From the NCBI GenBank assembly GCA_028718945.1, contig JAQUKT010000002.1:7874-71873 (forward strand): DNA of 64,000 nt, given 5' to 3'. The position numbers and the translations under genes were made by a program. This DNA is from Actinomycetota bacterium. GTDB lineage: Bacteria > Actinomycetota > Geothermincolia > Fen-727 > JAQUKT01. Within the stretch, counting starts at the first letter, position 1, and each line of letters opens with the position of its first letter. Under the pieces are notes generated by a model. The model was not told the DNA's origin. It saw only the letters and a list, made by a program, of their open reading frames with translations, and did no database searches. Positions 30,707 to 57,309 of the stretch are shown piece by piece.

Positions 30707-31711
30707 TCAAATGTTCCCACTTTTGATGAGAAGTTCGGCGATTTGGATTGCATTGAGTGCGGCGCCCTTTCGCAGATTGTCGCTAACAATCCACATATTG
30801 AGGGAGTTCTCACGGGAAAAATCAAGCCTAATGCGTCCAACGAAAGTAGCATCCTTTCCAACGCAGTGGATTGGAACCGGGTACAGATTTTTTTCGGGCT
30901 CATCGACAACCTCGATACCAGGTGAATCATTTAAGACCTGGCGAGCCAGGTCGGGCGTAATTCGCTTTTCGAATTCAATGTTTACCGACTCGCTGTGTCC
31001 AACGAAAACAGGCACCCTGACGGTTGTTGCAGTTACTGGAAGATCCGGGATTCCCATGATTTTTCGGGTCTCGTTTACCATCTTCATTTCTTCCTTCGTG
31101 TACCCGTTTTCGAGAAATTCATCTATATGTGGAAGGCAGTTGTACGCTATCTGGTGAGGGTAAACGCTCTTGGTCACTGGTTTTCCCTCCTCGATCTGCC
31201 GCACCTGCCCTTTCAACTCCTCAACGGCTTCTTTGCCCGTGCCGGATACGGACTGGAATGTTGTTACGACGACCCTTTTTATGACAAATCTCCGGTGAAG
31301 GGGCGCAAGTGCAACCACCAGCTGTATGGTGGAGCAGTTCGGGTTTGCAATTATTCCCTTGTTGGCGAAGGCAGCATCCGGGTTGACCTCGGGGACGATG
31401 AGAGGAACATCGGGGTCCATCCTGAACGCGCTTGAATTGTCAATGACAGCAGCTCCGCGCTCCGAGGCAATGGGAGCAAATTCCTTGGAAATAGAGGCGC
31501 CGGCGGAGAAGAGAGCTATGTCTATGCTGAGAAACGATTCGCCAGATAGAACCTCAACCGGAATCTGTTTTCCCCTGAACGAAAAATTTCTTCCACGCGA
31601 GCGTTCAGAGGCAAGAAGACGAAGAGAATCTACGGGGAAGTTTCTCTCATCAAGAATTTTTTGCATTTCAATGCCAACCATTCCGGTGGCGCCCACAATT
31701 GCTACGTTCAT
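30707..31711 (-). CDS. asd: aspartate-semialdehyde dehydrogenase
   Basis: 334 aa. 'VAIVGATGMVG' NAD(P)-binding motif and active-site 'NPNCSTIQLV' cysteine motif. Confidence 0.9.
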   Translation of the reverse strand: MNVAIVGATGMVGIEMQKILDERNFPVDSLRLLASERSRGRNFSFRGKQIPVEVLSGESFLSIDIALFSAGASISKEFAPIASERGAAVIDNSSAFRMDPDVPLIVPEVNPDAAFANKGIIANPNCSTIQLVVALAPLHRRFVIKRVVVTTFQSVSGTGKEAVEELKGQVRQIEEGKPVTKSVYPHQIAYNCLPHIDEFLENGYTKEEMKMVNETRKIMGIPDLPVTATTVRVPVFVGHSESVNIEFEKRITPDLARQVLNDSPGIEVVDEPEKNLYPVPIHCVGKDATFVGRIRLDFSRENSLNMWIVSDNLRKGAALNAIQIAELLIKSGNI

Positions 31712-31818: not shown

Positions 31819-33027
31819 TCAAAGTCCGAATTCTTTGTGGAGCACGCGGACTGCCTTCTCCCCGTTTTCTTCCCTGACGACAACAGAAATCTTGATCGGA
31901 GAGGTGCTTATCATTTCTATGTTCATGCCGTTTTCCGCAAGGGTCCTGAACATACGCGCTGCAATGCCGGGATTGGTTTTCATCCCTGCGCCGATCAGGC
32001 TTACTTTTGCTATTCTCTCGTCAAACCTCGTGTCTTTTGCATGTATCGACTCTGCGATTTTCATTGATATTTTGCGAACATCTCGAAGGTCATCTTGATT
32101 CACCGTAAAAGAGATGTCAGTCCTTTCCTTTTCGCTGACATTCTGAATGATCATGTCAACATTGATATTGGCATCGGCCAGTGCGCCAAACAACTCGGCG
32201 GCGACGCCCGGTTTGTCCGGGACGCCGAGGAAAGTAACCTTTGCTTCACTTGAGTCATGTGTTACTGCGCTTACGATTGGTTTTTCCATGATTTTATCCT
32301 CACTCCTTACCCAGGTTCCCTCCCCTTCGTGGAAACTCGACCTAACGTGAAGGGGAACATTGTAATTTCGCGCGTATTCGACAGAGCGGGACTGCAAGAC
32401 TTTAGCGCCGGTTGCGGCCATCTCGAGCATCTCCAGGTAAGAGACCTCGTCAATCTTGTGAGCCCCTGGCACGACCTTCGGGTCTGCCGTAAAAACTCCG
32501 TCCACATCGGTATATATTTCACAGTAGTCAGCATGGAGCGTTGCGGCGAGTGCAACAGCTGTTGTGTCCGAGCCACCTCTCCCAAGAGTAGTTATCTCAC
32601 CATCACTGGTGACACCCTGGAAGCCTGCTACTACAACTATTTTCCCCTTTCTCAATTCCTGTATTACTCGCTCTGCTCCCACATGCCTGATTTTCGCTTT
32701 CGTGTGACCCGTATCTGTGATTATTTCAACCTGCTGCCCGGTCATGCTGACAGCATCAGCGCCCATTTCGTTGAGCGCCATGGCAAGAAGAGCCATCGAG
32801 ACGTTCTCGCCGGTTGAAAGTAGCATGTCAGTTTCTCTCTCAGGCGGGTTGCTTGTTATCTGTCTCGCGAGCTCTAATAACTGGTCGGTTGTATCGCCGA
32901 GCGCACTCACCACAACCACCAGATGGTCGATTCGCTTCTTACTCTCAGCCACACGTCTGGCTACATTCTTTATTTTCTTTACATCCGCAACGGACGTTCC
33001 TCCGAACTTCTGAACAACTAAAGACAT
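31819..33027 (-). CDS. lysC: aspartate kinase
   Basis: 402 aa. '[10 protein letters not shown]' N-terminus, a kinase domain and two C-terminal ACT domains. Confidence 0.9.
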
Positions 33028-33121: not shown

Positions 33122-35410
33122 TTAAGCTTTGATGGCATTTTCCTTGCTGCAAGTTTCGGGGTCTCGCATGCGCTCTGGTGCCTTGTAGCGAAGAAGCGAC
33201 TTGTTTATGGGTCCGAGTTTCTTGATTGCGTCAACCATGTTCTTTATTGTACTTGCGAATTTTTCTCCCTCGGAAGCTGAAATCCAGGCAAGTTCAAGCC
33301 TTTCGGGTTCGATTCCTAAGGCTTCGATATATTCTTTTAGCGCATTGTAGCGCTTTTCGGTCATTAGGTTCGCGGATATATAGTGGCAGTCTCCAATGTG
33401 GCATCCGGACATAAGCACGCCATCAGCGTTGTGCCTGAAGGCCTCTAAAACATAAAGCGGATCTATTCTTGCGGAACACATGAGTCTTATTATCCTTACA
33501 TTTGGAGGGTACTGCATGCGGGAAACCCCTGCATAGTCTGCGCCCGCGTACGAACACCAGTTGCAGGTAAATGCAAGGATCTGTGGCTCGAAGCCCTTTC
33601 CAGGTTTCGTTGGCTCCGGGAAAGCAGCCTTTATCTGCGCAAGTGTTTGGTCCTCCGTGAAATGCTGGGTTTTTATGGCAAGAGTGGGGCAGCCCGCCGC
33701 GCACGCTCCGCATCCTTTGCACAGTGCCGGATTTATTGATGAGACAAGTCTCATCTGTTCATTGATGACCATTTTTACAGCGCCAAACGGACACACCCAC
33801 TCACAGAAACCGCAACCGATGCAGGAATCCTCATCGACGCGTGAGGTTATTGCTTCAGTGCGAACGATTCCCTGCCTCATCGGATTGACCGCGTGAGAGG
33901 CGGCAGCATGAGCCTGTGCGACGCTCTCTGCAACATCTTTTGGTCCTTGGGCTGTTCCGCAGACGTATATGCCATCCGTTGCAAAGTCAACAGGTCTTAA
34001 CTTTGTGTGCGCTTCAAAAAAGAACTTATCCTGCCCAATTGGAACCCGCAAGTATTTTGAAAGAGAAAGACCGTCTTCTGTCTGGATTAGCGGGGTGGAA
34101 AGAACTACGAGGTCAGCGGGATAGGAAGCTTCCCTTTGAAGGAGGTCGAGGTATGTCCTTACCTCGAGTCGCCCATCTTTTTCCGCCACCTCGGGTATTT
34201 TTTCGGGATCAAATTTTCTGAACCTTATTCCTGCGGCTCGAGCTTTCCTGTACCATTCCTCCTGTATTACTCCATAGACTTCAATATCGTTATGAAGTAT
34301 GCTAACGCGCGCGTCGGGAAACTTTTCCTTGATGTTGAGCGCATTTTTTATCGCCACCATGCAGCAAATTCTGCTACAATACGAAACAAGCATGCCCCGG
34401 CTTCCCGCGCATTGTATCATCACAACATCGTGAAGAGCAGGAAGTCTGTCATCTAAAAGCATTTTCTCAAGCTCGCCCTGAGTGATGACATCTTTCAATT
34501 TTCCATATCCGTAAAGCCCTTCAGGCTTCAGTTCGGAAGAGCCGGACGCGACAATTATAGTTCCACACTTTATCGAGAAATCACCTTGCTTTGATGTAAT
34601 TTCAACCTCAAAATTTCCGAAGAATCCCTTGACTGACTTGATAAGCACATCGGTGTAAAGATGTACCTTGGGATTTGAGTTTATTCTTTCAATATAGCCT
34701 TTGATTAATCGCTTAGGATCCGCTCCTGTTGGGGTCAGATTATAAAGGGAGTTGAGCATCCCCCCTGGTTGTGATTCTTTCTCCAACAAGTGAACATCAT
34801 ATCCCTGTTCAGCGATTGAAAGGGCTGCGGTCATTCCGGAAATGCCCGCTCCTATTATGCATGATACAGGATTGATTTCTACAGAAATGTCTTCAAGACC
34901 CTCCAGATGAGAGACCCTCATCACGCTCATTCTTACAAGGTCTTTAGCCTTCTCGGTTGCCCTTTCCCAGTCGTGCATGTGCACCCATGAACACTGGTCT
35001 CTTATGTTTGCGAACTCGAAAAGATACTTGTTGAGCCCCGCGTCCTCGCATGCTTTTCGGAACAGGGGTTCATGTGTTCGAGGAGTGCAGGCGGCCACCA
35101 CCACTCTGTTGAGGTTGTGTTTTGAAATAGCTTCCTTGATTGAAGCGATACCGTCTTCTGCGCATGTATACAGGTTTCTCTTCACGTATTTCACATTGGG
35201 AAGAGTCTCTGCGTACTCTGCCACCTCTTCAACATCCAAGAAGCCCGCAATATTGGCACCGCAATGGCAAATAAAGACGCCAACTCTTGGTTCGGCCTTT
35301 TCCGGCTCAGTTGGTTTTTCTCTTGAAGGTTTTGCGGGTTTGCCCTGCGCACTCTTTACGGTAGCTCGGCTTCTCGCCACCTTTTCGGTGGCCGCCTTCA
35401 CTTCGCCCAA
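33122..35410 (-). CDS. HdrA-like flavoprotein (C-terminal-half type) fused to MvhD/FlpD domain (TTG start)
   Basis: 762 aa. Contains 'GVFICHCGANIAG', 'VVVAACTPRTHE...FANIRDQCSWVH', FAD motif 'CIIGAGISGMTAAL', two ferredoxin motifs 'CIGCGFCEWVCP' and 'CKGCGACAAGCP', and the MvhD domain 'ILAFTCNWCSYAGADYAGVSRMQYPPNVRIIRLMCSARIDP...SGCHIGDCHY'. Confidence 0.8.
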   Translation of the reverse strand: MGEVKAATEKVARSRATVKSAQGKPAKPSREKPTEPEKAEPRVGVFICHCGANIAGFLDVEEVAEYAETLPNVKYVKRNLYTCAEDGIASIKEAISKHNLNRVVVAACTPRTHEPLFRKACEDAGLNKYLFEFANIRDQCSWVHMHDWERATEKAKDLVRMSVMRVSHLEGLEDISVEINPVSCIIGAGISGMTAALSIAEQGYDVHLLEKESQPGGMLNSLYNLTPTGADPKRLIKGYIERINSNPKVHLYTDVLIKSVKGFFGNFEVEITSKQGDFSIKCGTIIVASGSSELKPEGLYGYGKLKDVITQGELEKMLLDDRLPALHDVVMIQCAGSRGMLVSYCSRICCMVAIKNALNIKEKFPDARVSILHNDIEVYGVIQEEWYRKARAAGIRFRKFDPEKIPEVAEKDGRLEVRTYLDLLQREASYPADLVVLSTPLIQTEDGLSLSKYLRVPIGQDKFFFEAHTKLRPVDFATDGIYVCGTAQGPKDVAESVAQAHAAASHAVNPMRQGIVRTEAITSRVDEDSCIGCGFCEWVCPFGAVKMVINEQMRLVSSINPALCKGCGACAAGCPTLAIKTQHFTEDQTLAQIKAAFPEPTKPGKGFEPQILAFTCNWCSYAGADYAGVSRMQYPPNVRIIRLMCSARIDPLYVLEAFRHNADGVLMSGCHIGDCHYISANLMTEKRYNALKEYIEALGIEPERLELAWISASEGEKFASTIKNMVDAIKKLGPINKSLLRYKAPERMRDPETCSKENAIKA

Positions 35411-35425
35411 CTGCTTTGTCCCCCC

Positions 35426-35569
35426 CTACTTCTTTGTCGGCTTCTTCGCAGCTTTCTTTGCCGGCTTCTTCGCAGCTTTCTTCGCAGCTTTCTTCGCAGC
35501 TTTCTTTGCCGGCTTCTTCGCAGCTTTCTTTGCCGGCTTCTTCGCAGCTTTCTTCTTTGCAGTTGCCAT
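35426..35569 (-). CDS. 47-aa Lys/Ala-repeat basic micro-protein (histone H1-like / HupB-tail-like AKKAAKKP repeats)
   Basis: ATG preceded by a strong RBS GGAGGTG (6-nt spacing). Translation MATAKKKAAKKPAKKAAKKPAKKAAKKAAKKAAKKPAKKAAKKPTKK. The TAG stop lies 15 nt before the hdrA-mvhD TTG start. The underlying DNA is a 24-nt-period tandem repeat. Not in the ORF track because it is under 60 aa. Confidence 0.5.
   Translation of the reverse strand: MATAKKKAAKKPAKKAAKKPAKKAAKKAAKKAAKKPAKKAAKKPTKK
35429..35566. repeat. tandem DNA repeat (period about 24 nt, about 5.5 copies) encoding AKKAAKKP units
   Basis: 'ggcttcttcgcagctttctttgcc' iterated. It produces spurious repetitive ORFs in other frames (FFAAFFAG, SCEEAGKE). 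Confidence 0.85.
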
Positions 35570-35579
35570 CTCCCACCTC

Positions 35580-36923
35580 CTATCTTTCCTTACCGACTTT
35601 TACCTCGACCTTAGCCCTGTTTTCTTCAATCTCGTGTGCAGCCCTATCTGCGGCTGCCCCTCCTTGTGTTACTGCATCTGTCACATCCATGGGGCGCGTG
35701 CATGCACCGGCTATGAAGACGCCGGGCACGTTTGTGTCCATTGGCGCAAGAAGATCATCTCGGGCCTTGAAAAACCCGAACTTGTCTGATTCTACACCAA
35801 GAGTTTTCGCAAGTTTTTCAATTCCCTTAGGCGGAACGAATGCCACTGATAGAACTACCATTTCAACTTCAAGCTTCTTAACGCCGCCTGATTCCGTATC
35901 ATCATACCAGATGTAAAGATTCTTTGTTTTTTCATCTTCTGTTATTTCACCTGGTCTTGCTCTTATGTACTTTATCTTATATTCATCCCTTCCTCTTCTT
36001 ATATATTCATCGAAACCTCTGCCGAATGCTCTTATATCTGTGTAAAAAATAAAGTTTTCGGTATCACCGTTGTGCATGTACGCAAGCATCGCGTCCTTTG
36101 TTGCATACATGCAGCATACTGAGCAACAATACGGATGACCAGACTTCAAATCCCTTGCGCCAACGCATTGAATATACGCGATTCTCTTAGGTCTTTCGCC
36201 ATCCGAACGGCGTGTGAGATTCCCCCCGGTTGGTCCACCGGCGTTTATTAGCCTTTCGTATTCCATGGAGTGAATAACGTTTTCAAAACGACCATAACCA
36301 TATTCAGTTACGGGTGTTGGGTCAAAGATGTCGAGCCCGGTTGCCACGATAATAGACCCGACGTTGAGGTTTATGATTTCATCCTTCATTTTGAAATCAA
36401 TTGCCTCTCGGGCACATGCGGTCAGACACTTTGACTTACACTTCCCCTTGGTGAATAAAAGACAGCTTTCAGGGTCAACAAGAGCGGCTCTCGGGACCGC
36501 CTGCGCGAATGGGATGTAAACCGCAGCTCGTTTGCCCAAACCCTCGTCCCACTCGTTTGGGATTCTATTTGAAAGCACACACTCTTCCGCACAGCTTCCG
36601 CATCCGGTACATTTACTCTCATCAATGTATCGTGAATGCTTTCTTACTCTCACACTAAAATTGCCAGACCTCCCCTGGAGTTTCTCCACTTCGGCATAAG
36701 TGATCACTTCTATTTTTGAATGATTGAAGCACGTTATCATTTTTGGGGCTAAAATGCATATCGAGCAATCGTTGGTAGGAAAGACCTTGTCGAGAAGTGC
36801 CATCCTTCCCCCGATTGACGGTTTTTTCTCAACAAGATATACATCATATCCCTTATCGCCGAGGTCAAGGGAAGCTTGAATTCCGCAAACACCACCGCCA
36901 ATCACCAGAACCGAGTCTGACAT
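35580..36923 (-). CDS. HdrA-like FAD-dependent oxidoreductase (N-terminal-half type with inserted ferredoxin domain)
   Basis: 447 aa. 'VLVIGGGVCGIQASLDLG' FAD motif, 'FPTNDCSICIL', inserted 4Fe-4S 'CTGCGSCAEEC', 'YIQCVGARD' and 'CCSVCCMYATK'. Homologous to residues 1-440 of the 1002-aa HdrA at 38685-41693. Confidence 0.8.
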   Translation of the reverse strand: MSDSVLVIGGGVCGIQASLDLGDKGYDVYLVEKKPSIGGRMALLDKVFPTNDCSICILAPKMITCFNHSKIEVITYAEVEKLQGRSGNFSVRVRKHSRYIDESKCTGCGSCAEECVLSNRIPNEWDEGLGKRAAVYIPFAQAVPRAALVDPESCLLFTKGKCKSKCLTACAREAIDFKMKDEIINLNVGSIIVATGLDIFDPTPVTEYGYGRFENVIHSMEYERLINAGGPTGGNLTRRSDGERPKRIAYIQCVGARDLKSGHPYCCSVCCMYATKDAMLAYMHNGDTENFIFYTDIRAFGRGFDEYIRRGRDEYKIKYIRARPGEITEDEKTKNLYIWYDDTESGGVKKLEVEMVVLSVAFVPPKGIEKLAKTLGVESDKFGFFKARDDLLAPMDTNVPGVFIAGACTRPMDVTDAVTQGGAAADRAAHEIEENRAKVEVKVGKER

Positions 36924-36929
36924 ATTATC

Positions 36930-38651
36930 TCACCCCTGTTTCTTCTTGACAGATTCCTGTGCTTTTGGACTCTTTTTTGCGGCTTTTTTCGTAGGAACGG
37001 GCTTTCCCTTCTTCTTTTCTGTTTTAGAGATTGGCTTGGCTTCTGACGTGGATTTTACGCCAGGAGCCTTCATTGCTTTGGCGATGATTGAGGTTATGTC
37101 ATGAACGTCGATGGCTGGCTTTTCCCTTTCGGTAGGGACCTTCCCCGAAAGCGCGCATCTGAAGTGAATCAGGCACTTTGGGCATGAGGTCAGAAGAGCG
37201 TCCGCGCCAGTCGAGCAAGCCTCCTCGAGCCGGTCAATCTGAATGCACTTTGATGTTGCGCCACAAAGTACCCAGGAACTGACACCACAGCATATTGCGT
37301 CGGCACCGGAGTGTTTCATCTCAACGAGTTCAACACCAGGTATCGAGTTTATGACCTTCCTTGGCGCCTCATATATCCCCATGTGACGACCGAGCCGACA
37401 GGGGTCCTGGTAAGTGACTTTCATTTCGAGAGTCTTGTTGAAAGAGATCTTTTTTTCATCAAGTAACTTGCTCGTGAGTTCCGTTATATGCATAACGTCA
37501 ATGTCCCAGTTCTTGATGACCCTCGGGTATTCGCGTGAAAAAGTGAGGTACCCTTCAGGACATGAAAAAACAACCCTTCTGACCCCTGCTTCTTTGATTG
37601 CTTTTGCATTCTTTTTTGCAAGTGTTTCGAAGGATTCGGTGTCGCCTGCCGCAAGAAGGTCATGACCGCAGCAGCATTCGTTTTCGAGCACAACTGGAGT
37701 GATTCCGGCAGCGTTGAGTATTGAGATGGTATTTTTTGCTATGTCAAGGGAACCAGGTCTTATGTACGAGTGTGAGATTTCATAATACGGCAGGCAGCCA
37801 ACAAAATACATTATGTCATTCTTGCTGCTGGCACTTCTTTTGATTCTCATCCCATCGGTAAAGGAAGTGCGGTTCTGGCGAATGCCTTCTGAAGCCATTA
37901 TTCTCATCCAGGAATACATGAGCCCTGATTTCGTTCCAACTTTATTATCCCTTATTTCCTTTGAGGCAACCCTTCGCTGGTAGATGAAGTCCGAGAATCG
38001 GACATCGAAGGGGCACCGTTCCTCGCACGTCGCGCAGGTAAGGCACTCCCATATCCCGTCGGTTTTTTCGAGGTCCGAAACAAGGTTTTCAAGTGAGTAT
38101 TCCACCAGTTTCCTTGGGCTGAACTCAGGGTTTCTCCTCGCAACGGGGCATGACGCGGTGCACTTCCCGCACTCAACGCAGAGCATGGCGTTGGTGCTTT
38201 CTATAGAGTCGTCGAGGGATGGTGCTTTCAAGACCCTTTGCCTGGCTTTCTTGAGAGGATTCGGACCGAGCTTCTTGAGAGCCTTGACGAAATCGGTGAT
38301 TTCTTCTGCAAACTGCTCCCCTTCATTTGCGTTGACCCACTTTATTCTCAATCTATCTGAACCGAGACCAAGAAGGTCGAGGAGCCTCCCGGTTGACTCG
38401 ACTCCCTCCTTTGCCCTCATATTGCCTGTTTTGTAGTGGCAGTCGGCTTCGTGACAACCACCGACCAAAACGCCATCAGCACCGCTTTCGAAGGCTTTAA
38501 GGATGAAGGCAGGTTCAATCCTGCCCGAGCACATGACGCGGATTATTCGTACATTTGCCGGATACTGGATTCTCGATACGCCAGCGTAGTCGGCGCCGGC
38601 ATATGCGCACCAGTTGCATGTGAACGCAATTATCCTTGGCTCAAAAGCCAA
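36930..38651 (-). CDS. MvhD-HdrC-HdrB fusion protein (MvhD domain + 2x[4Fe-4S] + two CCG domains) with Lys-rich C-terminal tail
   Basis: 573 aa. N-terminal MvhD 'IIAFTCNWCAYAGADYAGVSRIQYPANVRIIRVMCSGRIEP'. HdrC-like 'CVECGKCTASCP...CLTCATCEERCP'. HdrB-like CCG motifs 'CCCGHDLL' and 'CCGVSSWVLCG'. Tail 'KKKGKPVPTKKAAKKSPKAQESVKKKQG'. Confidence 0.8.
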   Translation of the reverse strand: MAFEPRIIAFTCNWCAYAGADYAGVSRIQYPANVRIIRVMCSGRIEPAFILKAFESGADGVLVGGCHEADCHYKTGNMRAKEGVESTGRLLDLLGLGSDRLRIKWVNANEGEQFAEEITDFVKALKKLGPNPLKKARQRVLKAPSLDDSIESTNAMLCVECGKCTASCPVARRNPEFSPRKLVEYSLENLVSDLEKTDGIWECLTCATCEERCPFDVRFSDFIYQRRVASKEIRDNKVGTKSGLMYSWMRIMASEGIRQNRTSFTDGMRIKRSASSKNDIMYFVGCLPYYEISHSYIRPGSLDIAKNTISILNAAGITPVVLENECCCGHDLLAAGDTESFETLAKKNAKAIKEAGVRRVVFSCPEGYLTFSREYPRVIKNWDIDVMHITELTSKLLDEKKISFNKTLEMKVTYQDPCRLGRHMGIYEAPRKVINSIPGVELVEMKHSGADAICCGVSSWVLCGATSKCIQIDRLEEACSTGADALLTSCPKCLIHFRCALSGKVPTEREKPAIDVHDITSIIAKAMKAPGVKSTSEAKPISKTEKKKGKPVPTKKAAKKSPKAQESVKKKQG

Positions 38652-38684
38652 CCGTCCTCCTTAGTCTTTGCGCAAACGAAAGCC

Positions 38685-41600
38685 TCATTTCACTGCTGAC
38701 CTTATCATCGCTTCGATTTGCTCATCCGTAAAGTGAGAAATTGTTATGGCGTCGCTCCAGCATGACACCGCGCACATGCCGCAGCCGACGCAAAGAGCCT
38801 CATTGACTTCGGCGACAGGAATTTTTGTACCATCGCTTTTGACACTTATGGCTCCGAATTCGCATGCGTCCTCGCAAGCACCGCAGCCCCGACATCTTTT
38901 CGGGTCAACTTTTGCTATCGCACCTTCACCGATGACATATTCTTTTGACAGGACTGTGATGGCTCTTCCTGCGGCACCGAGACCCTGGGAGATTGCTTCA
39001 CACGCAAGCTTTGGATGATGGCATGTTCCGGCGAGGAATATTCCCGCTGTCGAGAAATCGAGTGGTCTCAGTTTTACGTGGGCTTCAAGGAAGAAGCCGT
39101 CCTCATCGGTAGGTATCTTCATCATCTCGGAAAGGGCGACGTTCTCATCATCGGGGACAACCGGTGTGGAAAGAACAACTAAGTCAGTTTCTATTTCAAT
39201 CTCGTGGGGAACTTGAGGGCTATTGAGATTGACGGTTAAACCATTCTCTTCCTCCTTGATTTGCGGCGGTTCCTTGTCATCGTATCTTATGAACAGTATC
39301 CCTCGCTCTCTTGCTTTCCGATAGAGTTCTTCGTGAAGTGCGTAAACAACAATATCGCGGTAGAGAACAAAAACGTTTGCTCCTGTGTTTCTTTCCTTGA
39401 ATGCAATGGCGTTCATGAGGGCATGGATACAGCAAACGCGGCTGCAGTAAGGTCTCTCCTCGTTCCTCCCCTCGACGCATTGAATCATCACGACCGATTT
39501 TGCTTTTAGTGTGGGGAGTTTTTGCCTGAACTCTTTTTGTGTCATCACTTTTTGGCTCTTACCGAAGAGATAGGAGGATGGGATATGCTCTCTTCCTCCG
39601 GTTGCAACTATTACCGCGCCCGGCTTGATTTCTTTCAAGCCTTCCCCGGATTGAACGAGTGCCCTGAAATTTCCAATGTAGCCGGAGAAGTCAACGACTC
39701 TTGATGAAGTGTGAACGACCACGTTCCTTAGTTTCTTGAGTTCCGAAATCACAGACAGGATGCCCGTGCGGATGTCTTCTGTTTCCTCGATGCCAAGGTT
39801 AGCCGGAATGCTGTTGACGCCTCCACCCAGGTGTTCTTCTTTCTCAACGATGTGAGTTTTGAAACCCGATTTTGCAAGTACGAGCGCTGAGGAGATTCCC
39901 GCCGGACCGCCGCCTATTACAAGAGCTTCGTGGTTTACCTTTACCGGAAGTAGAGGGAGCGGCTCGAGCAACCTTGCTCTTGAGACTGACATCCCCACAA
40001 GGTCCTTTGCTTTCTCCGTTGCTCTTTCGGGCTCGAGGCTGTGAACCCACGAACACTGGTCGCGGATGTTCGCGAATTCAAGGAGGTAACGGTTCAAACC
40101 AGCCTCCCGAATTGTGTCTCTGAAAAGTTTTTCGTGAGTTCGGGGAGTGCATGCCGCCACGACTACCCTCGTGAGTTGGTGCTCATGAATTGCCTGCTTT
40201 ATTCTTTCGCAGGATTCCGATGAGCATGTATATGTGTTTTCCTCGACATATACCACATTCCCAAGAGTGCGAGCATATTCTGCGACGGCACCCGTATCTA
40301 CGAAGTTAGCGATGTTCTTCCCGCAATGGCAGACAAAGACGCCGATTCTTGGTTCCCTCACTTTTGTATCAGCTTCAGGTGGCAGTTCCTTTTCTTGAAT
40401 GAGTGTTCCGCGAGCCTCAGAGAGAATCGAGGAGCAATTGCCAGAAGCGCCCGCTGCCTGGGAAACAGTTTCCGGTATGTCCTTTGGACCAGTCGCTGAG
40501 CCACATGCGAATATCCCGGGCACTGAAGTTTCGGTAGGATTCTCCTGCTTGGTTTCGATGAAGCCGTATTGATTCAACTTTACGCCTGCTTTTTCGAGCG
40601 CGGTTATCGGGGAGGCTTTGAGCCCGACGGAAAGTGAAACGATGTCAAACTCATCTTCTTCCCATCCATCTTCCGTGAGGAACCGTATCCTCAAAGTATC
40701 CGGACCTGCGATTTCAACCGAGGGAATCTTGAATCTGGTAAATCTTATTCCGTACTCGTCTTCTGCTCTTCTTTTGAATCGTTCAAATCCCTTGCCAAAT
40801 GTTCGCATATCGATGTGGAATATGTGGCAGGCTATATCCGGGTCGTGTTCCTTGATAACTGTTGCCTGCTTTATTGCGTAGGTGCAGCAAACCCCGGAGC
40901 AGTAGGGATTGTGGAAAATGTCGCGAGAGCCGGCGCACTGGACGAAGGCAATTCTTTTTGCCGGTTTTCCATCCGATGGTCTTACTATTTTCCCCGCGTA
41001 CGGACCGCTTGCGCACATGATTCTTTCGAGTTGAATCGAGGATACTACATTCGGGTGTTCAGGGTGGTAGGGAGAAAGCTCCTTGATACTTGATGCATGA
41101 GCTCCGGTGGCAGCGACTATCGAACCCACCTCGATTTTCTTGGGTTCCGGTTTCTGGTCGAAGTCTATCGCTTTGGCGGTGCATGCTTCCTGGCACGGAG
41201 CCTTGCACTTCCCCTTCGTGAACTTGAGGCAGGCATTTGTATCAATGAGAGCAATGCGAGGGACGCTCTGGGCGAAGGGGATATAAATTGCACTCCTTTT
41301 TGAAAGACCGGCGTCGAATTCCGATGGGATTCTCTCGGAGAGAACGCATGCTTCTGAACATGCGCCACAGCCGGTGCATAACTCGGTTGAAACGAAGCGA
41401 GGATTTTGAATATATTCAACTGCGAAGTCCCCGGGACCGCCTTTGATTTCTTTGATTTGGGCAAGAGTGATTATCTCTATGTTCGGGTGCTGGCTTGCCT
41501 CCACCAGTTTTGGAGAAAGGATGCACATTGAGCAGTCGTTGGTAGGGAATGTCTTGTCTAACATTGCCATCAGGCCACCTATGGATGGACTGCTTTCAAG

Positions 41601-41693
41601 AATGTAAGCCTCAAAGCCGCTCTCTGCTACATCGAGCGCTGCTTCGATCCCGCCTATTCCTCCACCGACTACGAGGACAGAGCCCTTTTTCAT
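38685..41693 (-). CDS. tandem (double) HdrA-like flavoprotein, 1002 aa
   Basis: Two FAD-binding units ('VLVVGGGIGGIEAALDVA' and 'ALVIGGGPAGISSALVLA'). Inserted ferredoxin 'CTGCGACSEAC', Trx-like 'GVFVCHCGKNIANF', and C-terminal 2x[4Fe-4S] 'CRGCGACEDACEFG...CVGCGMCAVSC'. Confidence 0.85.
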   Translation of the reverse strand: MKKGSVLVVGGGIGGIEAALDVAESGFEAYILESSPSIGGLMAMLDKTFPTNDCSMCILSPKLVEASQHPNIEIITLAQIKEIKGGPGDFAVEYIQNPRFVSTELCTGCGACSEACVLSERIPSEFDAGLSKRSAIYIPFAQSVPRIALIDTNACLKFTKGKCKAPCQEACTAKAIDFDQKPEPKKIEVGSIVAATGAHASSIKELSPYHPEHPNVVSSIQLERIMCASGPYAGKIVRPSDGKPAKRIAFVQCAGSRDIFHNPYCSGVCCTYAIKQATVIKEHDPDIACHIFHIDMRTFGKGFERFKRRAEDEYGIRFTRFKIPSVEIAGPDTLRIRFLTEDGWEEDEFDIVSLSVGLKASPITALEKAGVKLNQYGFIETKQENPTETSVPGIFACGSATGPKDIPETVSQAAGASGNCSSILSEARGTLIQEKELPPEADTKVREPRIGVFVCHCGKNIANFVDTGAVAEYARTLGNVVYVEENTYTCSSESCERIKQAIHEHQLTRVVVAACTPRTHEKLFRDTIREAGLNRYLLEFANIRDQCSWVHSLEPERATEKAKDLVGMSVSRARLLEPLPLLPVKVNHEALVIGGGPAGISSALVLAKSGFKTHIVEKEEHLGGGVNSIPANLGIEETEDIRTGILSVISELKKLRNVVVHTSSRVVDFSGYIGNFRALVQSGEGLKEIKPGAVIVATGGREHIPSSYLFGKSQKVMTQKEFRQKLPTLKAKSVVMIQCVEGRNEERPYCSRVCCIHALMNAIAFKERNTGANVFVLYRDIVVYALHEELYRKARERGILFIRYDDKEPPQIKEEENGLTVNLNSPQVPHEIEIETDLVVLSTPVVPDDENVALSEMMKIPTDEDGFFLEAHVKLRPLDFSTAGIFLAGTCHHPKLACEAISQGLGAAGRAITVLSKEYVIGEGAIAKVDPKRCRGCGACEDACEFGAISVKSDGTKIPVAEVNEALCVGCGMCAVSCWSDAITISHFTDEQIEAMIRSAVK

Positions 41694-41726
41694 GCCGCGC
41701 TGCTCCTTTGAGTCATTGGTTTCTGC

Positions 41727-42662
41727 CTAAAGCACTCCTGCTTCGGATCGCCTGACGAGTCTTTCAAATGAATCGTCAACTCTTTTCTGAATTTCCTTTA
41801 TGTCTTCCTCTTTGAGATGGCGAAAGCGACCCTGTGACCTTAGGTATTCGAGAACTGGTTTTCTTTTTTCCATGAAATAGTTCAATTTGAGTTTTCCGTC
41901 TATGATTTCATAGAGTGGGAAGACGCCTGTTTCGACCGCAAGCCTTCCCATTTCAACGGTAAGTTTGCTGTCGAACCTCCACCCGGTAGGGCAAGGAGTC
42001 AGGATGTGAAGATAGGTTGGTCCTTCTGTTTCGAATGCTATTTTTGCTTTGCGCAGAAGGTCCATGGGGAAACTTGGGCAGCATGTCGCAAGATAGGGAA
42101 TTTCATGAGCTGCAACGATCATGGGAAGATTCTTTTTGTTTGTAACCTGCCCTATTGATTCCTTTCCCGCAGGGCTTGTTGTGGTGCTTGCGCCGTACGG
42201 GGTTGCGGATGAGCGCTGGATGCCGGTATTCATATATGCCTCATTGTCTGTGCAGATGTATGTGAAATCGTGAAATCTCTCGAAAGCGCCAGAGAGAGCC
42301 TGAAGACCGATGTCTGCGGTTCCTCCATCACCGGCAAGGGCGATAATTGTTGTCCGCCCCTGCTTGTAGCGCTTCTTGTTCCTTAGTGTCTTGATTGCCG
42401 ATTCAACTCCGGATGCCACCGCAGCGGCATTTTCGAATGCAACGTGTATCCAGGGAACTCGCCATGCGGTTTGCGGATAGGGGCTTGATATGATTTCAAC
42501 ACAGCCTGTCGCGCTGCATACAATTGTATCCGGACCTGCCGCTTTCATAAATTGCCTGATGGCAAGAGCTTCTCCACAACCTTGGCAGCCACGGTTGCCC
42601 TCGGCGAAATATTCCTGCGGAGGAATAAGCCTGGGGATGAAGTCGAAGTTGCTCTCCGTCAT
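41727..42662 (-). CDS. porB: 2-oxoacid:ferredoxin oxidoreductase beta subunit (TPP-binding; PorB/VorB type)
   Basis: 311 aa with 'GCQGCGE' and the TPP-binding 'GDGGTADIG' motif. Fourth gene of a porG-D-A-B order block. Confidence 0.85.
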   Translation of the reverse strand: MTESNFDFIPRLIPPQEYFAEGNRGCQGCGEALAIRQFMKAAGPDTIVCSATGCVEIISSPYPQTAWRVPWIHVAFENAAAVASGVESAIKTLRNKKRYKQGRTTIIALAGDGGTADIGLQALSGAFERFHDFTYICTDNEAYMNTGIQRSSATPYGASTTTSPAGKESIGQVTNKKNLPMIVAAHEIPYLATCCPSFPMDLLRKAKIAFETEGPTYLHILTPCPTGWRFDSKLTVEMGRLAVETGVFPLYEIIDGKLKLNYFMEKRKPVLEYLRSQGRFRHLKEEDIKEIQKRVDDSFERLVRRSEAGVL

Positions 42663-43837
42663 TCCCTCACTCCTATCATGAAGTACTCCTCCTCAAAACC
42701 CTCTGAAAGCGCTCGTTCGGCAATTTCTACGATTTGTGTGAAATCTTCAATTGTGACATCTCTACCGCCCAGTCCTGCGATGAAGCCTATGGTTAGCGGC
42801 TTTTTCTCGAGGGGATACAATGCACTTCTGAGCTCTGAGCACATGGGCCCGCCCGGCCCCCCGAAGGAAAGGCATCGGTCAACTACGGCTACGGCTTTTG
42901 CATTTTGAACGGCATCCCTTATGTCATTGAAGGGGTATGGTCTCCATAGCCTGGTTGTAAGAAGCCCGACTTTCTTGCCAGACTTTCGCATCTTGCTCAC
43001 AGCGACTTTTGCGGTTCCGGAAATCGAGCCCGCAAGATTGATGATGATTTCAGCATCTTCTGTCATGAATTTCTCGACGGGAGAATATTTTCTGCCAAAC
43101 TTCAAAGCGAAATCTTCCCAAACCTCGAGAATCACGGGATAAGCCCCGAGAATCGCTTCGTTCTGCTGCTTTTTTATCTCTGTATAGATTTCCGGAAAAC
43201 CAACCGGACCAATGGATACGGGGTTTTCGGGGTCGAGTTTCAATTTCGGATTGAACGGGGGGAGAAAGGAATCAATGTCCTCCTGGCTCTCGACGAACAG
43301 CGGTTCAATAACATGAGAGAGTGTAAATCCGTCAATGTTTACGATTGAGGGAGTGAGCACCCTTTCATCTTCAGCCCACTTGAACGACTGTATGGTGAGG
43401 TCGAAGGATTCCTGCCCTGTTTCGGCAAAGACCTGTATCCAACCGCAGTCTCTTTCGGCCATTATGTCACTCTGGTCTCCCCAGATTGAAAGAGGTGCCG
43501 ATAATGCTCTGTTCGCAACAGCCATCACAACGGGGAGTCGGAGACCAGAAGCAATGAAGAGAACCTCGTGCATGAGCGCGAGGCCCTGTGACGCTGTAGC
43601 GGTGAAGGTGCGCGCGCCTGCAGCGGAGGCGCCGCAGCAAGCGCTCATTGCGGAATGTTCGGATTCAACCATGATAAACTCTGAGTCGAGTTCTCCATCG
43701 GCTACCATGCGAGCCAGCTCTTCTACGATATGTGTTTGTGGCGTAATCGGATAAGCCGCAATTACATCCGGCCTGCACAGCTTTGCCGCTTCGCTTATTG
43801 CAAAGGAAACCTCGAGTCCGACTCTTTTGCCCATCAC
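42659..43837 (-). CDS. porA: 2-oxoacid:ferredoxin oxidoreductase alpha subunit
   Basis: 392 aa with PorA-like N-terminal 'AYPITPQT' and 'ESEHSAMSACCGASAAGARTFTATASQGL'. Confidence 0.85.
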   Translation of the reverse strand: MMGKRVGLEVSFAISEAAKLCRPDVIAAYPITPQTHIVEELARMVADGELDSEFIMVESEHSAMSACCGASAAGARTFTATASQGLALMHEVLFIASGLRLPVVMAVANRALSAPLSIWGDQSDIMAERDCGWIQVFAETGQESFDLTIQSFKWAEDERVLTPSIVNIDGFTLSHVIEPLFVESQEDIDSFLPPFNPKLKLDPENPVSIGPVGFPEIYTEIKKQQNEAILGAYPVILEVWEDFALKFGRKYSPVEKFMTEDAEIIINLAGSISGTAKVAVSKMRKSGKKVGLLTTRLWRPYPFNDIRDAVQNAKAVAVVDRCLSFGGPGGPMCSELRSALYPLEKKPLTIGFIAGLGGRDVTIEDFTQIVEIAERALSEGFEEEYFMIGVRE

Positions 43838-44121
43838 TTCTCCTCTTCAACCATCTTTATCGCGTTTCTCGGACATTCGTGGGCGCATATCCCGCATCCC
43901 TTGCAGTGTTCATAATCGACCTCATAGTATCCCTCTTCGTTGATGAACAGCGAGGATTCGGGGCAGAGAATCCAGCATAGTCCGCATTTGTTACAGGCTT
44001 CCGGGTCGCGCAGTGGCTTTTCGCTTCTCCATTCCCCAGTTTTTTGTTGCGTCGCGCTTCCCGGCTCAGAAATTGCAGCCGCAAGCGGGAAGGCTTTCCA
44101 TTTTGGAAGATCAGTCATCAC
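43834..44121 (-). CDS. porD: 2-oxoacid:ferredoxin oxidoreductase delta subunit (2x[4Fe-4S] ferredoxin)
   Basis: 95 aa with 'CNKCGLCWILCP' and 'CKGCGICAHECP'. Confidence 0.8.
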   Translation of the reverse strand: MMTDLPKWKAFPLAAAISEPGSATQQKTGEWRSEKPLRDPEACNKCGLCWILCPESSLFINEEGYYEVDYEHCKGCGICAHECPRNAIKMVEEEK

Positions 44122-44693
44122 TCACCCTCAAGGATCGTTTCGCTGTAAGCTCGCTTCATAGCATTTACGTTTTTTTCTGCGACTTGAGGAAACATCTCTT
44201 CAACTTGTTTTGCCAGCGAATCAATTGAAACCAGGCCGGAAACTCTCGAGAGAGCTCCCATCATTGTTGTGTTGGTTATGGGCCTCCCAATTTCCTCGTG
44301 TGCTATTTTGCTTGCGTTAACAATACAGACTTTCTGAGATATCTTGAATTCCTGCTTTACTTCCGAAATCGTTTTGCGCGTGTTGACTATAAGCGTGCCG
44401 TCTGGAGAAAGACCCTCGGTGGTATCAACCGCACTCATTACCGAGGGGTCGAGAACAACAACAATATCCGGACTCGTTATGCCGGACCTTATGAAGATGA
44501 ATTCATCGGATATCCTCGTGAACGCCATCACGGGGGCTCCCCGCCTTTCAGGTCCAAAACTCGGGAAAGCCTGGGCGTATTTGCCATCTTCTATTGCTGC
44601 AAGTGCAAACATCTGGGCCGAGGCAACGGCTCCCTGGCCGCCTCTCCCGTGCCATCTTATCTCGGTAATATTTTGAGCGCTTAAGTCTTCCAT
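44118..44693 (-). CDS. porG: 2-oxoacid:ferredoxin oxidoreductase gamma subunit
   Basis: 191 aa with 'IRWHGRGGQGAVASAQMFALAA', typical of the PorG/KorC gamma subunit. Confidence 0.8.
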   Translation of the reverse strand: MEDLSAQNITEIRWHGRGGQGAVASAQMFALAAIEDGKYAQAFPSFGPERRGAPVMAFTRISDEFIFIRSGITSPDIVVVLDPSVMSAVDTTEGLSPDGTLIVNTRKTISEVKQEFKISQKVCIVNASKIAHEEIGRPITNTTMMGALSRVSGLVSIDSLAKQVEEMFPQVAEKNVNAMKRAYSETILEGE

Positions 44694-44696
44694 GGT

Positions 44697-45569
44697 TTAC
44701 CCGATTTTTTTCATAAGACCATCGACTCCCACCCTGTGAGCCTGAAGCCCGAGAGCGGAAGGGTCGTTGCCGAGGGAGATTGCAAGCAACTGGCAATAAT
44801 GTAGCACAGGAATCTGATAGTCTTTTTTGAGCTTGCGTTTGATTTCAAGTTGACCAAAGTCAAACTGCTCGAAACAGGCGGGGCAAACTACGACAATTAC
44901 ATCTGCGCCGGAATCTTTCATGGCCTTGCATTTGTTGCTTGCCATTGAAAGAGAGAGCTCAGGGGAGCGAACCGCATTTCCACAGCAGTCCGTGTAACCA
45001 TCGTACTTCACGACCTCACAGGAGAGAGCCTCAACCAAGTGCTCGAGAACTTCTGGATTGAATGGATCGTCGAATGAGACCAAGCGGGAAGGTCTCAAGA
45101 GATGGCAGCCATGATGAATCGCAACTTTCAGACCTTTGAGCGGCTTTCTTACAAGTGATGATATTCTTTCCGCGCCGACCTCTGCGAGGCACTCTGCAAC
45201 ATGCTTGACCTTCGCTTTTCCATTCAAAGAAAGCCCGAGCGGTGAAAGCTTTTCTGAGATAGTTTGTTTTTCGCCGTTTTCTTTGAGGATTTGGGAGGCT
45301 TCCTTGAGTGTCGAATAACACCCGTTGCAAAGTGTAAGCAAATCGCGGTTTCCCCTTTCGGCAAGAGCGATATTTCTGGAAGCAAGAGTAAGCCAGTCTT
45401 CGAGGGAGGAAGCTTTGATATTCCATGGTTCGGGGCAACAGGAGAAACCTCTGACATCTATCAGGTTTATTCCGCATTGTGGTAGAGCAATACGCGCCGC
45501 AAGTTCTATTTGCGGATGTCTCAGAGGTATCATGCATCCTGGAAAGAAAGTAAAATCCGTCCCTTTCAA
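44697..45569 (-). CDS. hdrB: HdrB-like protein with two CCG (Cys-rich) domains
   Basis: 290 aa. Two CX(n)CCX(n)CXXC units ('...SCCPEPW...CNGC' and '...DCCGNAV...CPAC'). Confidence 0.8.
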   Translation of the reverse strand: MKGTDFTFFPGCMIPLRHPQIELAARIALPQCGINLIDVRGFSCCPEPWNIKASSLEDWLTLASRNIALAERGNRDLLTLCNGCYSTLKEASQILKENGEKQTISEKLSPLGLSLNGKAKVKHVAECLAEVGAERISSLVRKPLKGLKVAIHHGCHLLRPSRLVSFDDPFNPEVLEHLVEALSCEVVKYDGYTDCCGNAVRSPELSLSMASNKCKAMKDSGADVIVVVCPACFEQFDFGQLEIKRKLKKDYQIPVLHYCQLLAISLGNDPSALGLQAHRVGVDGLMKKIG

Positions 45570-45572
45570 TTG

Positions 45573-46028
45573 TCACTCCATGATTTTTTTCACTTGTTCG
45601 GCGACCGTTGAATCAACTTCAGGCAGTCCAAGTTCTCTCCTTCTTTTCTTGATTGCTTCAGAAAGAGGGATGAATGTTCCGTTTTCGATTACATGAACAC
45701 GCGAGTCTTTTATTTCTTCGGGTGAATTTCCAGACTTATACGCCACGTTCTTGAGCGCTGTTATGACTTCAACGGGGTGTGTTCCCTGGGGACAGAACTC
45801 GTAGCATTTGTAACATGTGGCACATTCCCAGATTATGGAATCCTTGTCGATTAGTTCCCCTAAACCAAGCGACGCGGAAAGCACTATTTCGGCTGGATTG
45901 AAGCGAGAGTCAAGGCGAGCTGTCGGACATTCAGATACACACGCATTACATTGATAGCAGTGGTCGATTTCTCCTGCTTTTTCAACCTCACTCAGGTTTT
46001 TCTTGAAATCAGGGTTTACTGAAACCAA
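45573..46028 (-). CDS. hdrC: HdrC-like 2x[4Fe-4S] ferredoxin subunit
   Basis: 151 aa with 'CYQCNACVSECP' and 'CATCYKCYEFCP'. First gene of the hdr-por operon. Confidence 0.8.
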   Translation of the reverse strand: MVSVNPDFKKNLSEVEKAGEIDHCYQCNACVSECPTARLDSRFNPAEIVLSASLGLGELIDKDSIIWECATCYKCYEFCPQGTHPVEVITALKNVAYKSGNSPEEIKDSRVHVIENGTFIPLSEAIKKRRRELGLPEVDSTVAEQVKKIME

Positions 46029-56514: not shown

Positions 56515-57309
56515 TTGAGAAGAGCAAAAAAAGAGCAAAGGAAGAAGGAGGAAAAGCAACCTCGGGAAAGCACTCTCAAGCCTGGTGAGGCAAAAAGACC
56601 ATTGTTCATTGCAGGCTGGGGGGGCGTCCTCGGTGAAACACTATCGCCGCCAAAACCTGAAGCTCCTCCACGAAAGAACAAAAAAGCGCTCGATACTCCC
56701 CGTGGGATGGTGGAAATTGAAAACTACTCCCCTTCTTCAATGCTCGAGAAACTGAGTATTGATGATGGAATCTTCATGTTCAGCAGGCACAACCCAGAAA
56801 GGCAAAAAGAGGCGCTTGTCAATGTTGCGAAATCGGATGGTGGCAATGTCGTCACGGCCGTAATTGGGGAAACATTGGTTGGTTATGTTGGAATTCACCA
56901 CCCCTCTGAAAGGGAGCGATGGGGCAAGCCAAAGTACAACTGGCTTTTTGAGCTTGGGGCAATAGAAGTAAGCAGGAACTACAGGAAGCTCGGGATTGCA
57001 AACGCGATGCTACAGGCTACCTTTGACGACCCGTTCTACGAGGACAAAATTGTTTTCGCGACGGGCTTTACTTGGCACTGGGACATGGAAGGAACGGGAC
57101 TCGACAAGTTTCAATACAGGTCGATGGGTGTGAAATTTTTTGGCAGGTATGGCTTCATGGAGATGTCAACGGACGAAAGCAACATATCAATGGACCCCGC
57201 TAACTTATTCTTGGTTAGGCTCGGCAAAAGCACAACCTTCAGCCAGTACCAGAAGTTTGCGGCGCTCCTTTTCGCAAATGAGTGGGAAGCGATGCTCCGG
57301 GGAATTTAG
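56515..57309 (+). CDS. acuA: acetoin utilization protein AcuA-like GNAT acetyltransferase (possibly shorter: ATG 56707); Lys-rich N-terminal extension
   Basis: The C-terminal 200 aa align with B. subtilis AcuA ('LFELGAIEVSRNYRKLGIANAML' and 'TGFTWHWDMEGTGLDKFQYRSMGVKFF...MDPANLFLVRLGKS'). The N-terminal 'MRRAKKEQRKKEEKQPRE...' may be a mis-extended start. Confidence 0.7.
   Translation: MRRAKKEQRKKEEKQPRESTLKPGEAKRPLFIAGWGGVLGETLSPPKPEAPPRKNKKALDTPRGMVEIENYSPSSMLEKLSIDDGIFMFSRHNPERQKEALVNVAKSDGGNVVTAVIGETLVGYVGIHHPSERERWGKPKYNWLFELGAIEVSRNYRKLGIANAMLQATFDDPFYEDKIVFATGFTWHWDMEGTGLDKFQYRSMGVKFFGRYGFMEMSTDESNISMDPANLFLVRLGKSTTFSQYQKFAALLFANEWEAMLRGI

Follow-up and report, generated by a model that had tools for sequence, protein, structure and literature searches.

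Polycations built from repeats of lysine, alanine and proline are known in bacteria almost only as tails of DNA-handling proteins. Actinobacterial examples of such K/A/P tails are the PAKKA/KAAK C-terminal repeats of HupB/MDP1 and the tails of Ku, Streptomyces TopA, DdbA and HbhA (PMC6821194, PMC10739243, PMC3643593, PMC10665949). In related Wood–Ljungdahl Actinobacteria, hdrA–mvhD clusters have been described, with no open reading frame (ORF) for a peptide of this kind mentioned (PMC7325909), and our literature search found no paper linking Hdr with lysine-rich peptides or describing Hdr in Geothermincolia/Anoxymicrobiaceae. Here we analyse a 64-kb stretch of contig JAQUKT010000002.1 from an Actinomycetota bacterium of the Geothermincolia (hereafter ‘the window’), in which a 47-codon ORF made almost entirely of AKKAAKKP units lies between two genes for HdrA-like modules, hdrA-N and hdrA-C. 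A free-standing K/A/P microprotein appears to have been retained over a long period at a single position within a redox-enzyme operon.

The product of this micro-ORF, translated from the window, is MATAKKKAAKKPAKKAAKKPAKKAAKKAAKKAAKKPAKKAAKKPTKK, followed directly by the stop. It contains 23 Lys, 17 Ala, 4 Pro, 2 Thr and 1 Met, so that K, A and P make up 44 of the 47 residues, and it has a net charge of +23, with a computed mass of ~4.9 kDa and a pI of 11.3. Trypsin would cleave it into pieces of two to four residues, out of reach of tryptic proteomics. The gene is read from the minus strand: hdrA-N ends in TAG at 35582–35580, and the ATG of the micro-ORF (35569–35567) lies 10 nt past that stop, behind a GGAGG Shine–Dalgarno (SD) sequence (Table 1). 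The original prediction had placed the ORF, with this ribosome-binding site, between hdrA-N and hdrA-C, and its coordinates were borne out; because hdrA-N and hdrA-C align with the successive modules of an unsplit paralogue (Table 1), the ORF sits exactly at the inter-module junction. The 24-nt array that underlies it is by far the strongest repeat in the window according to Tandem Repeats Finder (TRF), with a score of 215 against 64 for the runner-up. The micro-ORF of the window lies in the +1 frame with respect to hdrA-N and shares the frame of hdrA-C, from whose TTG start it is separated by the TAG and five codons. The observation is confirmed, and lies far beyond chance.

We translated the region after hdrA-N in every related locus, the relatives being metagenome-assembled genomes of Anoxymicrobiaceae/Geothermincolia (HdrA-C 63–77% identity) together with peat, permafrost and sediment metagenome contigs. 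In ~55 related loci from Geothermincolia-like Actinomycetota, an A/K/P(R) ORF started 10 nt after the hdrA-N stop; these loci include 11 of the 17 GTDB species representatives, three of these 11 being cut by contig ends. Its length ranged from 23 to 108 aa, with an N-terminus of the form MA(A/T)(A)KK and a C-terminus that is usually A(A/K)RKR or KKR before the stop. The upstream context, ATAGGAGGT(A/G)GGAG-ATG, was nearly invariant, the hdrA-N stop was conserved throughout the clade, and in 44 arrays a stop followed directly (TAG in 35, TAA in nine). Relative to the RIGVFxCHCG motif of hdrA-C, all three frame relations of the micro-ORF were found, and in the closest relatives of the window (L023 and L089) it was out of frame with hdrA-C. 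Because all three relations occur, we take the micro-ORF to be an independent cistron rather than a damaged piece of hdrA-C. The comparison as a whole indicates a real, independently initiated small gene, whose product is predicted to be an intrinsically disordered polycation, about half Lys/Arg and the rest Ala/Pro.

Two ways of joining the peptide to its neighbours were considered and rejected. Fusion to hdrA-N by a +1 frameshift is contradicted by a stop that most relatives have in the micro-ORF frame, one codon before the ATG, and read-through of the TAG into hdrA-C is not a conserved feature, as the frame relation varies. The relatives were also checked for an unsplit hdrA in which the AKK stretch would simply be a linker, which would have pointed to a frameshift or assembly error in the window. 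None was found among them; the archaeal and Desulfosudaceae unsplit homologues have short, AKK-free linkers, and hdrA is unsplit at the Desulfosudaceae locus L019.

Some lineages vary the arrangement. Between the stop of the micro-ORF and the start of hdrA-C lie 15–18 nt in certain lineages, 93 nt in loci of the L090 type and ~125 nt in those of the L010/L052 type. Loci L010, L011, L052 and L053 encode a Ser/Thr-richer micro-ORF (MSPAKKTAAKKSSSGSRCASKKSAAKKATAKK...SAR, then the stop) and an HdrA-C whose N-terminus is not basic and which starts ~125 nt away; this version of the micro-ORF looks the most like an autonomous gene. The 93-nt spacer of the L002/L090 lineage (about 2908–3000 in L090–L095) contains a GC-rich hairpin (GGGCTTCC...GGAAGCCC) with an A-run, not a T-run, behind it; the hairpin is absent from the window and could be an RNA processing or stability element. 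In L028, L060 and L076, the 3′ end of hdrA-N appears to be partly duplicated (GKASAKAGS..stop, then A(N/stop)AG(S/P)GR-stop) upstream of the SD and micro-ORF, which suggests local duplication or slippage outside the AKK array too.

Composition and codon statistics were obtained from 44 unique arrays, chosen by a filter of at least 85% A/K/P/R. In these, K made up 42.7%, A 36.8%, P 10.7% and R 7.8% of residues, all others together ~2%. Only four D or E residues occurred in ~3150, hydrophobic residues were virtually absent too, and the Ser/Thr-richer L010/L052 variant, which the filter excluded, likewise lacked D and E. The Arg codon AGG was used 195 times and the Glu codon GAG once, with both being one transition from AAG. 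The four Ala codons GCA/GCC/GCG/GCT were used 187/289/403/118 times and Pro was encoded by all four of its codons, in proportions like those of the adjacent hdrA-N; third positions of Ala and Pro thus vary freely, while replacements are confined to K/R and A/P. Lysine was encoded by AAG in 98.4% of cases in the arrays versus 74.9% in adjacent hdrA-N (Fisher p about 2e-66, from non-independent counts). Ribosomes slide on consecutive AAA lysine codons, and the AAG bias fits avoidance of slippery poly-A in a translated lysine run. All 185 TRF periods in the 44 arrays were multiples of 3. The AKK frame had the simplest alphabet and no stops, and gene callers predicted the micro-ORF in six of six places of the L090 type, with no Pfam hit. 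The features expected of a coding small ORF were therefore all found: a conserved start and SD, a conserved stop, a frame kept across species and silent-site variation. The original prediction that the micro-ORF looks translated holds on this comparative evidence, and the gene looks selected as a polycation.

Other readings of the same DNA did not fare as well. An alternative Glu-rich frame (an 89-aa ORF at 35307–35576) contained 14 stops across the arrays, had no conserved end and in the window is not in frame with hdrA-C. In L089 the public call of hdrA-C (5001–7328, protein P0007) runs upstream through this Glu-rich reading of the AKK array (MGDGNEEGCKEAGKESCEE...). The same locus has a TTG, preceded by a GGGGAG SD, 18 nt downstream of the stop of the micro-ORF, mirroring the window TTG after GGGGGGG; for this reason the N-terminus of P0007 is probably a mis-call and the TTG the likelier start. 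Two antisense F/A-rich ORFs (34977–35789 and 35416–35916, plus strand) were taken as spurious, being antisense to hdrA-N/hdrA-C coding sequence. The window peptide had no exact record as a gene product in the encoding-contig index, which says nothing on its annotation status. Ten micro-ORF products were absent from the protein-cluster collection on exact look-up, yet one of 86 aa is a called gene elsewhere.

The array had been proposed to be a hotspot for copy-number change, and near-identical flanks do enclose arrays of different length. Six contigs of the L090 type encode an identical 766-aa HdrA-C, with 0–4 mismatches per kb in the flanks, and have micro-ORFs of 45, 86, 93, 95, 93 and 45 aa; other near-identical contig sets gave 45/75/86 aa and 80/90/107 aa. 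Assemblies also break in the array: contigs L001 (at 1589), L005, L008, L011, L037, L041, L048, L053 and L059 end inside it, L002 has a run of Ns, and a Logan contig exactly matching the window hdrA-N ends 14 codons into the micro-ORF. The 5.2 copies in the window could accordingly be an underestimate. Short-read assemblies break or collapse at the repeat, and in this operon the gene is variously called, missed or, as in P0007, absorbed in the wrong frame into hdrA-C. Taken together, these comparisons mark the micro-ORF as a real, conserved and hypervariable microprotein gene.

The original prediction described the flanking genes as the two halves of one split hdrA. A split there is, but the C part is not half of an HdrA. 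It opens with the RVGVFICHCG N-terminal Cys domain of canonical HdrA and continues with the FAD domain and ferredoxin domains, and is therefore a complete module, so that the pair corresponds to a tandem-HdrA (HdrA2-like) gene split between its modules. In Pfam terms the pair contains Pyr_redox_2, Fer4 and FlpD, with the ferredoxin domains and MvhD (FlpD) in hdrA-C-mvhD, and the two genes are collinear with the N- and C-modules of unsplit homologues. Such unsplit homologues, annotated ‘hydrogenase iron-sulfur subunit’, are 1140–1186 aa long, include MvhD and were found in Asgard archaea and Bathyarchaeia. Translation of hdrA-C would start at the TTG at 35410, which has a G-rich SD (GGGGGGG) 9 nt in front of it and is matched by a TTG start in the closest relatives, or alternatively at the GTG at 35401, as in the NCBI protein P0001, which comes from a metagenome-assembled genome labelled ‘Actinomycetota bacterium’ and to which the hdrA-C product is 100% identical.

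How might a free lysine-rich peptide have come to lie at this junction? In lineages without the micro-ORF, hdrA-C starts 0–27 nt after the hdrA-N stop, in the same slot, whereas in most ORF-bearing lineages HdrA-C keeps a K/A/S-rich N-tail of 40–74 aa. In L087 and L088 (protein P0029), HdrA-C-MvhD itself carries an 86-aa K-rich N-terminal tail (MAEKKRATKKKVASAKKARGRGKKPAKKAAAKK...), and a separate micro-ORF is lacking; this fused gene has a TTG start 14 nt after the hdrA-N stop and an AAGGGG SD. The fused form, the shared slot, the retained N-tails and the single in-frame TAG in the window argue fairly well for the micro-ORF being a severed N-terminal tail of HdrA-C. On this scheme an ancestral unsplit tandem HdrA–MvhD gene would have undergone fission between its HdrA modules; the free N-terminus of HdrA-C would then have gained a Lys/Ala-rich low-complexity tail through repeat slippage, and a stop codon or frameshift within the tail would have severed it. 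The old start codon and SD would thereafter drive a free AKK peptide, with HdrA-C using a new start further downstream. Sister lineages show what may be the stages, in which the gene is first unsplit, then split, then split and extended by a long tail, and lastly cut off from that tail. If the scheme is correct, the locus is a clean natural example of a microprotein gene born from a low-complexity protein terminus.

In a neighbour-joining tree of hdrA-N, the window and L089 formed the first branch, followed by L009, which lacks the ORF, then L088, with the fused form, and then a large clade bearing the ORF, within which L038/L043/L046 form a nested loss. Both of the deepest branches thus include loci with the micro-ORF, and the pattern is as expected if it arose once and was afterwards lost or fused at least twice. 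Under the present tree the fused form of L087/L088 is possibly a secondary re-fusion. A more distant Geothermincola-like clade (L012–L015, L056 and L057) has the split gene and no micro-ORF.

Related tails occur elsewhere in the operon. The lysine-rich C-tail that the original prediction noted on the neighbouring MvhD-HdrCB fusion is present, and is the only other AKK-like stretch in the 64 kb; similar, rapidly changing tails were found on HdrCB and HdrA-C of the relatives. The AKK array itself occurred only at the hdrA-N/hdrA-C junction in the ~400 kb of related loci searched. The broader suggestion that the organism uses polylysine tails widely found no support in this window, as the YidC protein (4991–5977, PF02096) has an ordinary basic C-tail, the AcuA/GNAT N-terminus (56515–57309) is mixed K/R/E/Q, and the crude proteome of the window contains 6.1% K and 6.0% R.

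We tentatively propose, from composition and these cis tails, that the peptide acts by electrostatic polyanion binding. It would do in trans what the Lys-rich tails of HdrA-C and MvhD-HdrCB do in cis, binding non-specifically to a polyanion such as nucleic acid, the anionic membrane or an acidic ferredoxin, the last being the redox partner common to the 2-oxoacid:ferredoxin oxidoreductase (POR) and Hdr enzymes of the operon. In-frame changes of repeat copy number would tune its charge from about +11 to +52. The full reading, of a real small gene derived from a severed HdrA-C tail and encoding a trans-acting polycation, is the best explanation we can offer, and we judge it about evenly poised between right and wrong. 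A bolder version, which we think improbable, would make the AKK peptide a genuine accessory subunit, held by electrostatic binding, of a bacterial Hdr-type complex that bifurcates electrons. It might then serve as a fly-casting capture arm for the acidic ferredoxin shared between POR and Hdr or, alternatively, as a tether or condensate-former co-localising the two, with in-frame repeat slippage providing a strain-level rheostat of charge. Were this true, a redox complex would have a hypervariable gene-encoded polycation as a component.

Several observations weigh against the reading of the micro-ORF product as a selected, trans-acting partner of Hdr. Its translation is deduced from comparative data, and concerted evolution of tandem repeats can, even where selection is absent, homogenise their composition, period and codon usage. 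Counts of codons are non-independent, with units amplified and ancestry shared, and the arrays were picked by a composition filter. Pairs of arrays of the same length differed at 27 synonymous versus 44 non-synonymous codons (23% synonymous expected), a weak excess that is confounded by repeat mis-registration. Part of the copy-number variation may be repeat collapse in short-read assemblies. The net charge of hdrA-N was the same with and without the ORF (−10.9 versus −8.6), so no charge compensation was seen, and the HdrCB C-tail co-occurs only partly with the micro-ORF in the relatives. Lineages without the ORF have short or acidic HdrA-C N-termini, so the enzyme can do without the polycation. 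Whatever its origin, moreover, a free peptide of +23 or more would in any cell bind to RNA or DNA, and it is gene position and the cis tails, rather than any physical tie, that link it to the Hdr complex.

Another possibility is that the peptide is a general nucleoid- or RNA-associated small basic protein, minimal and H1 C-terminal domain (CTD)-like, which binds nucleic acid non-specifically and has no Hdr role, its place in the hdr operon reflecting only where it was born and a well-expressed operon. The K/A/P composition, with ~0.5 positive charge per residue, would suit such a protein, as would the absence of any charge signal tying it to hdrA-N and the retention of the hdr genes in lineages that lack the ORF; the sole family hits, all sub-threshold, are to H1-like nucleoproteins (HC2 PF07382 up to 34 bits; NF038053 ~21 bits), and prokaryotic Lys-rich low-complexity regions are enriched in DNA-/RNA-binding proteins (PMC6821194). 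It would not explain why, in all loci searched, the AKK array occurs at this junction only, why subunits of the same operon have similar cis tails or why one lineage has an HdrA-C fusion, and no family threshold was passed. Known bacterial H1-like proteins are also mostly >100 aa, and we consider this explanation unlikely. We think it similarly unlikely that the ORF is a relay, whose translation carries ribosomes from hdrA-N to hdrA-C (by coupling, mRNA unfolding or protection from Rho) and whose peptide is a degraded, functionless by-product. The close packing of the genes in the window and many relatives, with the ATG 10 nt past the hdrA-N stop and the weak TTG of hdrA-C 15–18 nt past the micro-ORF stop, an ORF length unconstrained between 23 and 108 aa, at least two clean losses and an array RNA without stable structure of its own (z = +0.86) are all as a relay would have them. 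However, a pure relay would tolerate K-to-E and similar replacements, and the arrays hold almost no acidic or hydrophobic residues, whereas their silent sites vary. The ORF has also been kept despite the 93-nt hairpin spacer of the L090 type and the ~125 nt of the L010/L052 type; this variation in the distance to hdrA-C, from 15 to ~125 nt, disfavours the earlier suggestion of translational coupling only.

Two further explanations appear very improbable. The ORF could be an artefact, either an hdrA-C N-terminus or unsplit-hdrA linker broken by a sequencing or assembly error, or an untranslated intergenic repeat; in the window only one TAG interrupts the frame that it shares with hdrA-C, the array is a frequent point of assembly breaks or collapse, and the fused form is real in one lineage. 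The comparative data largely refute this: more than 50 independent assemblies have a separate ORF whose SD, ATG and stop are conserved, the ORF is found in each of the three frames relative to hdrA-C and is out of frame in L023 and L089, the window's closest relatives, the hdrA-N stop is clade-wide and no relative had an unsplit gene with an AKK linker. Just as remote is a lysine-sensing leader peptide, in which ribosome stalling on 20–50 Lys codons when Lys-tRNA is scarce would modulate downstream genes. About 45% of the codons are Lys codons and, in conserved synteny, ask and asd lie directly downstream of hdrA-C. Aspartate kinase and aspartate-semialdehyde dehydrogenase, the products of these genes, are the first enzymes of the lysine pathway. 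Against a leader, 2.3 kb of hdrA-C intervenes, half of the residues are Ala/Pro, there is a promoter-like site in front of ask, and L090–L095 keep the ORF though an IS200-type transposase gene in the opposite orientation lies between their hdrA-C and ask. A terminator/antiterminator pair after the ORF, a riboswitch and an Rfam family were all looked for and not found, and the array, lacking a stable fold (z = +0.86), does not resemble an attenuator. Because no attenuator or riboswitch was found and the promoter-like site lies at 33125–33096, the position of ask and asd 2.3 kb downstream of an ORF with ~45% Lys codons is probably a coincidence.

The operon reads, on the minus strand, hdrC, hdrB, por gamma/delta/alpha/beta, hdrA (long), mvhD-hdrCB, hdrA-N, micro-ORF and hdrA-C-mvhD, and is followed by ask and asd. 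This long same-strand cluster (33122–46028) includes the genes for the gamma (44118–44693), delta (43834–44121), alpha (42659–43837) and beta (41727–42662) subunits of 2-oxoacid:ferredoxin oxidoreductase, which places an enzyme that produces ferredoxin together with two Hdr-type modules. The ask (31819–33027) and asd (30707–31711) genes, also on the minus strand, directly follow hdrA-C, with synteny conserved in the window, L087, L089 and L090–L095. The transposase gene that lies between hdrA-C and ask in L090–L095 (5305–6066, minus strand) is of the IS200/IS605 Y1 type (PF01797). Elsewhere in the window, a (CG)8.5 dinucleotide run was found at 60901–60917, inside a large ORF (60760–63285).

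Table 1. Positions in the window of the micro-ORF, its signals and repeat, and the flanking hdr genes.
Feature	Position	Strand	Basis and remarks
Micro-ORF, 47 aa, poly(A/K/P) polycation, TAG stop	35426..35569	-	Translation; counterparts in the same slot in ~55 related loci
Shine–Dalgarno sequence GGAGG	35576..35580	-	Shares the last base of the hdrA-N stop TAG; 6 nt before the micro-ORF ATG
Tandem DNA repeat, 24-nt period, encodes AKKAAKKP	35430..35554		Tandem Repeats Finder: 5.2 copies, 91% matches, score 215
hdrA-N, first HdrA-like FAD/Fe-S module, 447 aa	35580..36923	-	Pfam; 43% identical to residues 5-431 of the unsplit paralogue
hdrA-C-mvhD, second complete HdrA module fused to MvhD	33122..35410	-	Pfam; 44% identical to residues 435-1000 of the unsplit paralogue
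Low-complexity K/A/P/S/E-rich N-terminal tail of HdrA-C, ~39 aa before RVGVFICHCG	35294..35410	-	In frame with the micro-ORF
mvhD-hdrC-hdrB fusion gene, directly upstream, same operon	36930..38651	-	Pfam
Lys-rich C-terminal tail of the MvhD-HdrCB fusion (...KTEKKKGKPVPTKKAAKKSPKAQESVKKKQG)	36930..37061	-	Sequence; variable among relatives
Unsplit tandem-HdrA paralogue, 1002 aa; inter-module linker marks the site of the split	38685..41693	-	Pfam, alignment

The original prediction called the peptide histone-H1-like, which stands as a resemblance of composition and not as family membership. The peptide falls within the H1-CTD-like/PAKKA-type compositional class (>80% K/A/P(R), short tandem repeats, no acidic residues), and the 44 related arrays are 98% K/A/P/R. 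Against Pfam HC2 (PF07382), the window peptide gave no hit even at E ≤ 10, and homologues scored 10.1, 17.8 and 34.4 bits (threshold 40). Against NCBIfam it again gave no hit, with homologues at ~21 bits for NF038053 hist_H1_lk_Burk (cut-off 80) and 8–12 bits for NF038052 Hc2 (cut-off 135). A homology search with the peptide placed none of 8000 scored candidates at E ≤ 0.001 and a PDB search returned nothing, the composition correction in HMMER making homology searches with such peptides uninformative. The likeness to H1 is one of composition and not a demonstrable homology.

In composition and repeat character the peptide is nevertheless close to Chlamydia Hc2, the H1-like protein of Burkholderiales and the C-terminal domain of eukaryotic H1. 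Bacterial H1-like proteins are about 125–200 aa or longer and are encoded by stand-alone nucleoid genes, which are not known to be embedded in metabolic operons. The micro-ORF peptide differs from them in being short, inside a metabolic operon and below all family thresholds. A polybasic C-tail of the YidC/Oxa1 type, which the YidC of the window has, offers another parallel, that of a basic disordered tail on a non-DNA protein, and the role of the YidC C-tail is ribosome binding. That tail, unlike the AKK peptide, is K/R/G/S/Q-mixed, has no tandem repeat and is attached to its own protein.

The flanking genes compare best with tandem HdrA–MvhD proteins of the HdrA2 type (Methanosarcina HdrA2; Asgard archaea and Bathyarchaeia), as hdrA-N and hdrA-C-mvhD together give the same domain order. 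Those proteins are unsplit and have a ~25-aa mixed-charge linker without AKK repeats, whereas here the gene is split, with a separate ORF at the junction. If the peptide does act on Hdr or POR, the electron-bifurcating complexes of uncultured anaerobic Actinomycetota would have in electrostatic appendages a feature that has escaped notice until now. The tails of HupB, Ku, TopA, DdbA and HbhA come from the same phylum and share with the peptide a K/A/P composition, encoding by repeats, variable length and presumed disorder; they act by non-specific electrostatic binding of polyanions, to which we liken the micro-ORF peptide by composition. HupB-type tails are, however, attached to a folded DNA-binding or DNA-processing domain, whereas the AKK peptide is free-standing, at 23–108 aa, and its relatives in cis are found on Fe–S flavoprotein subunits of a redox complex rather than on DNA enzymes.

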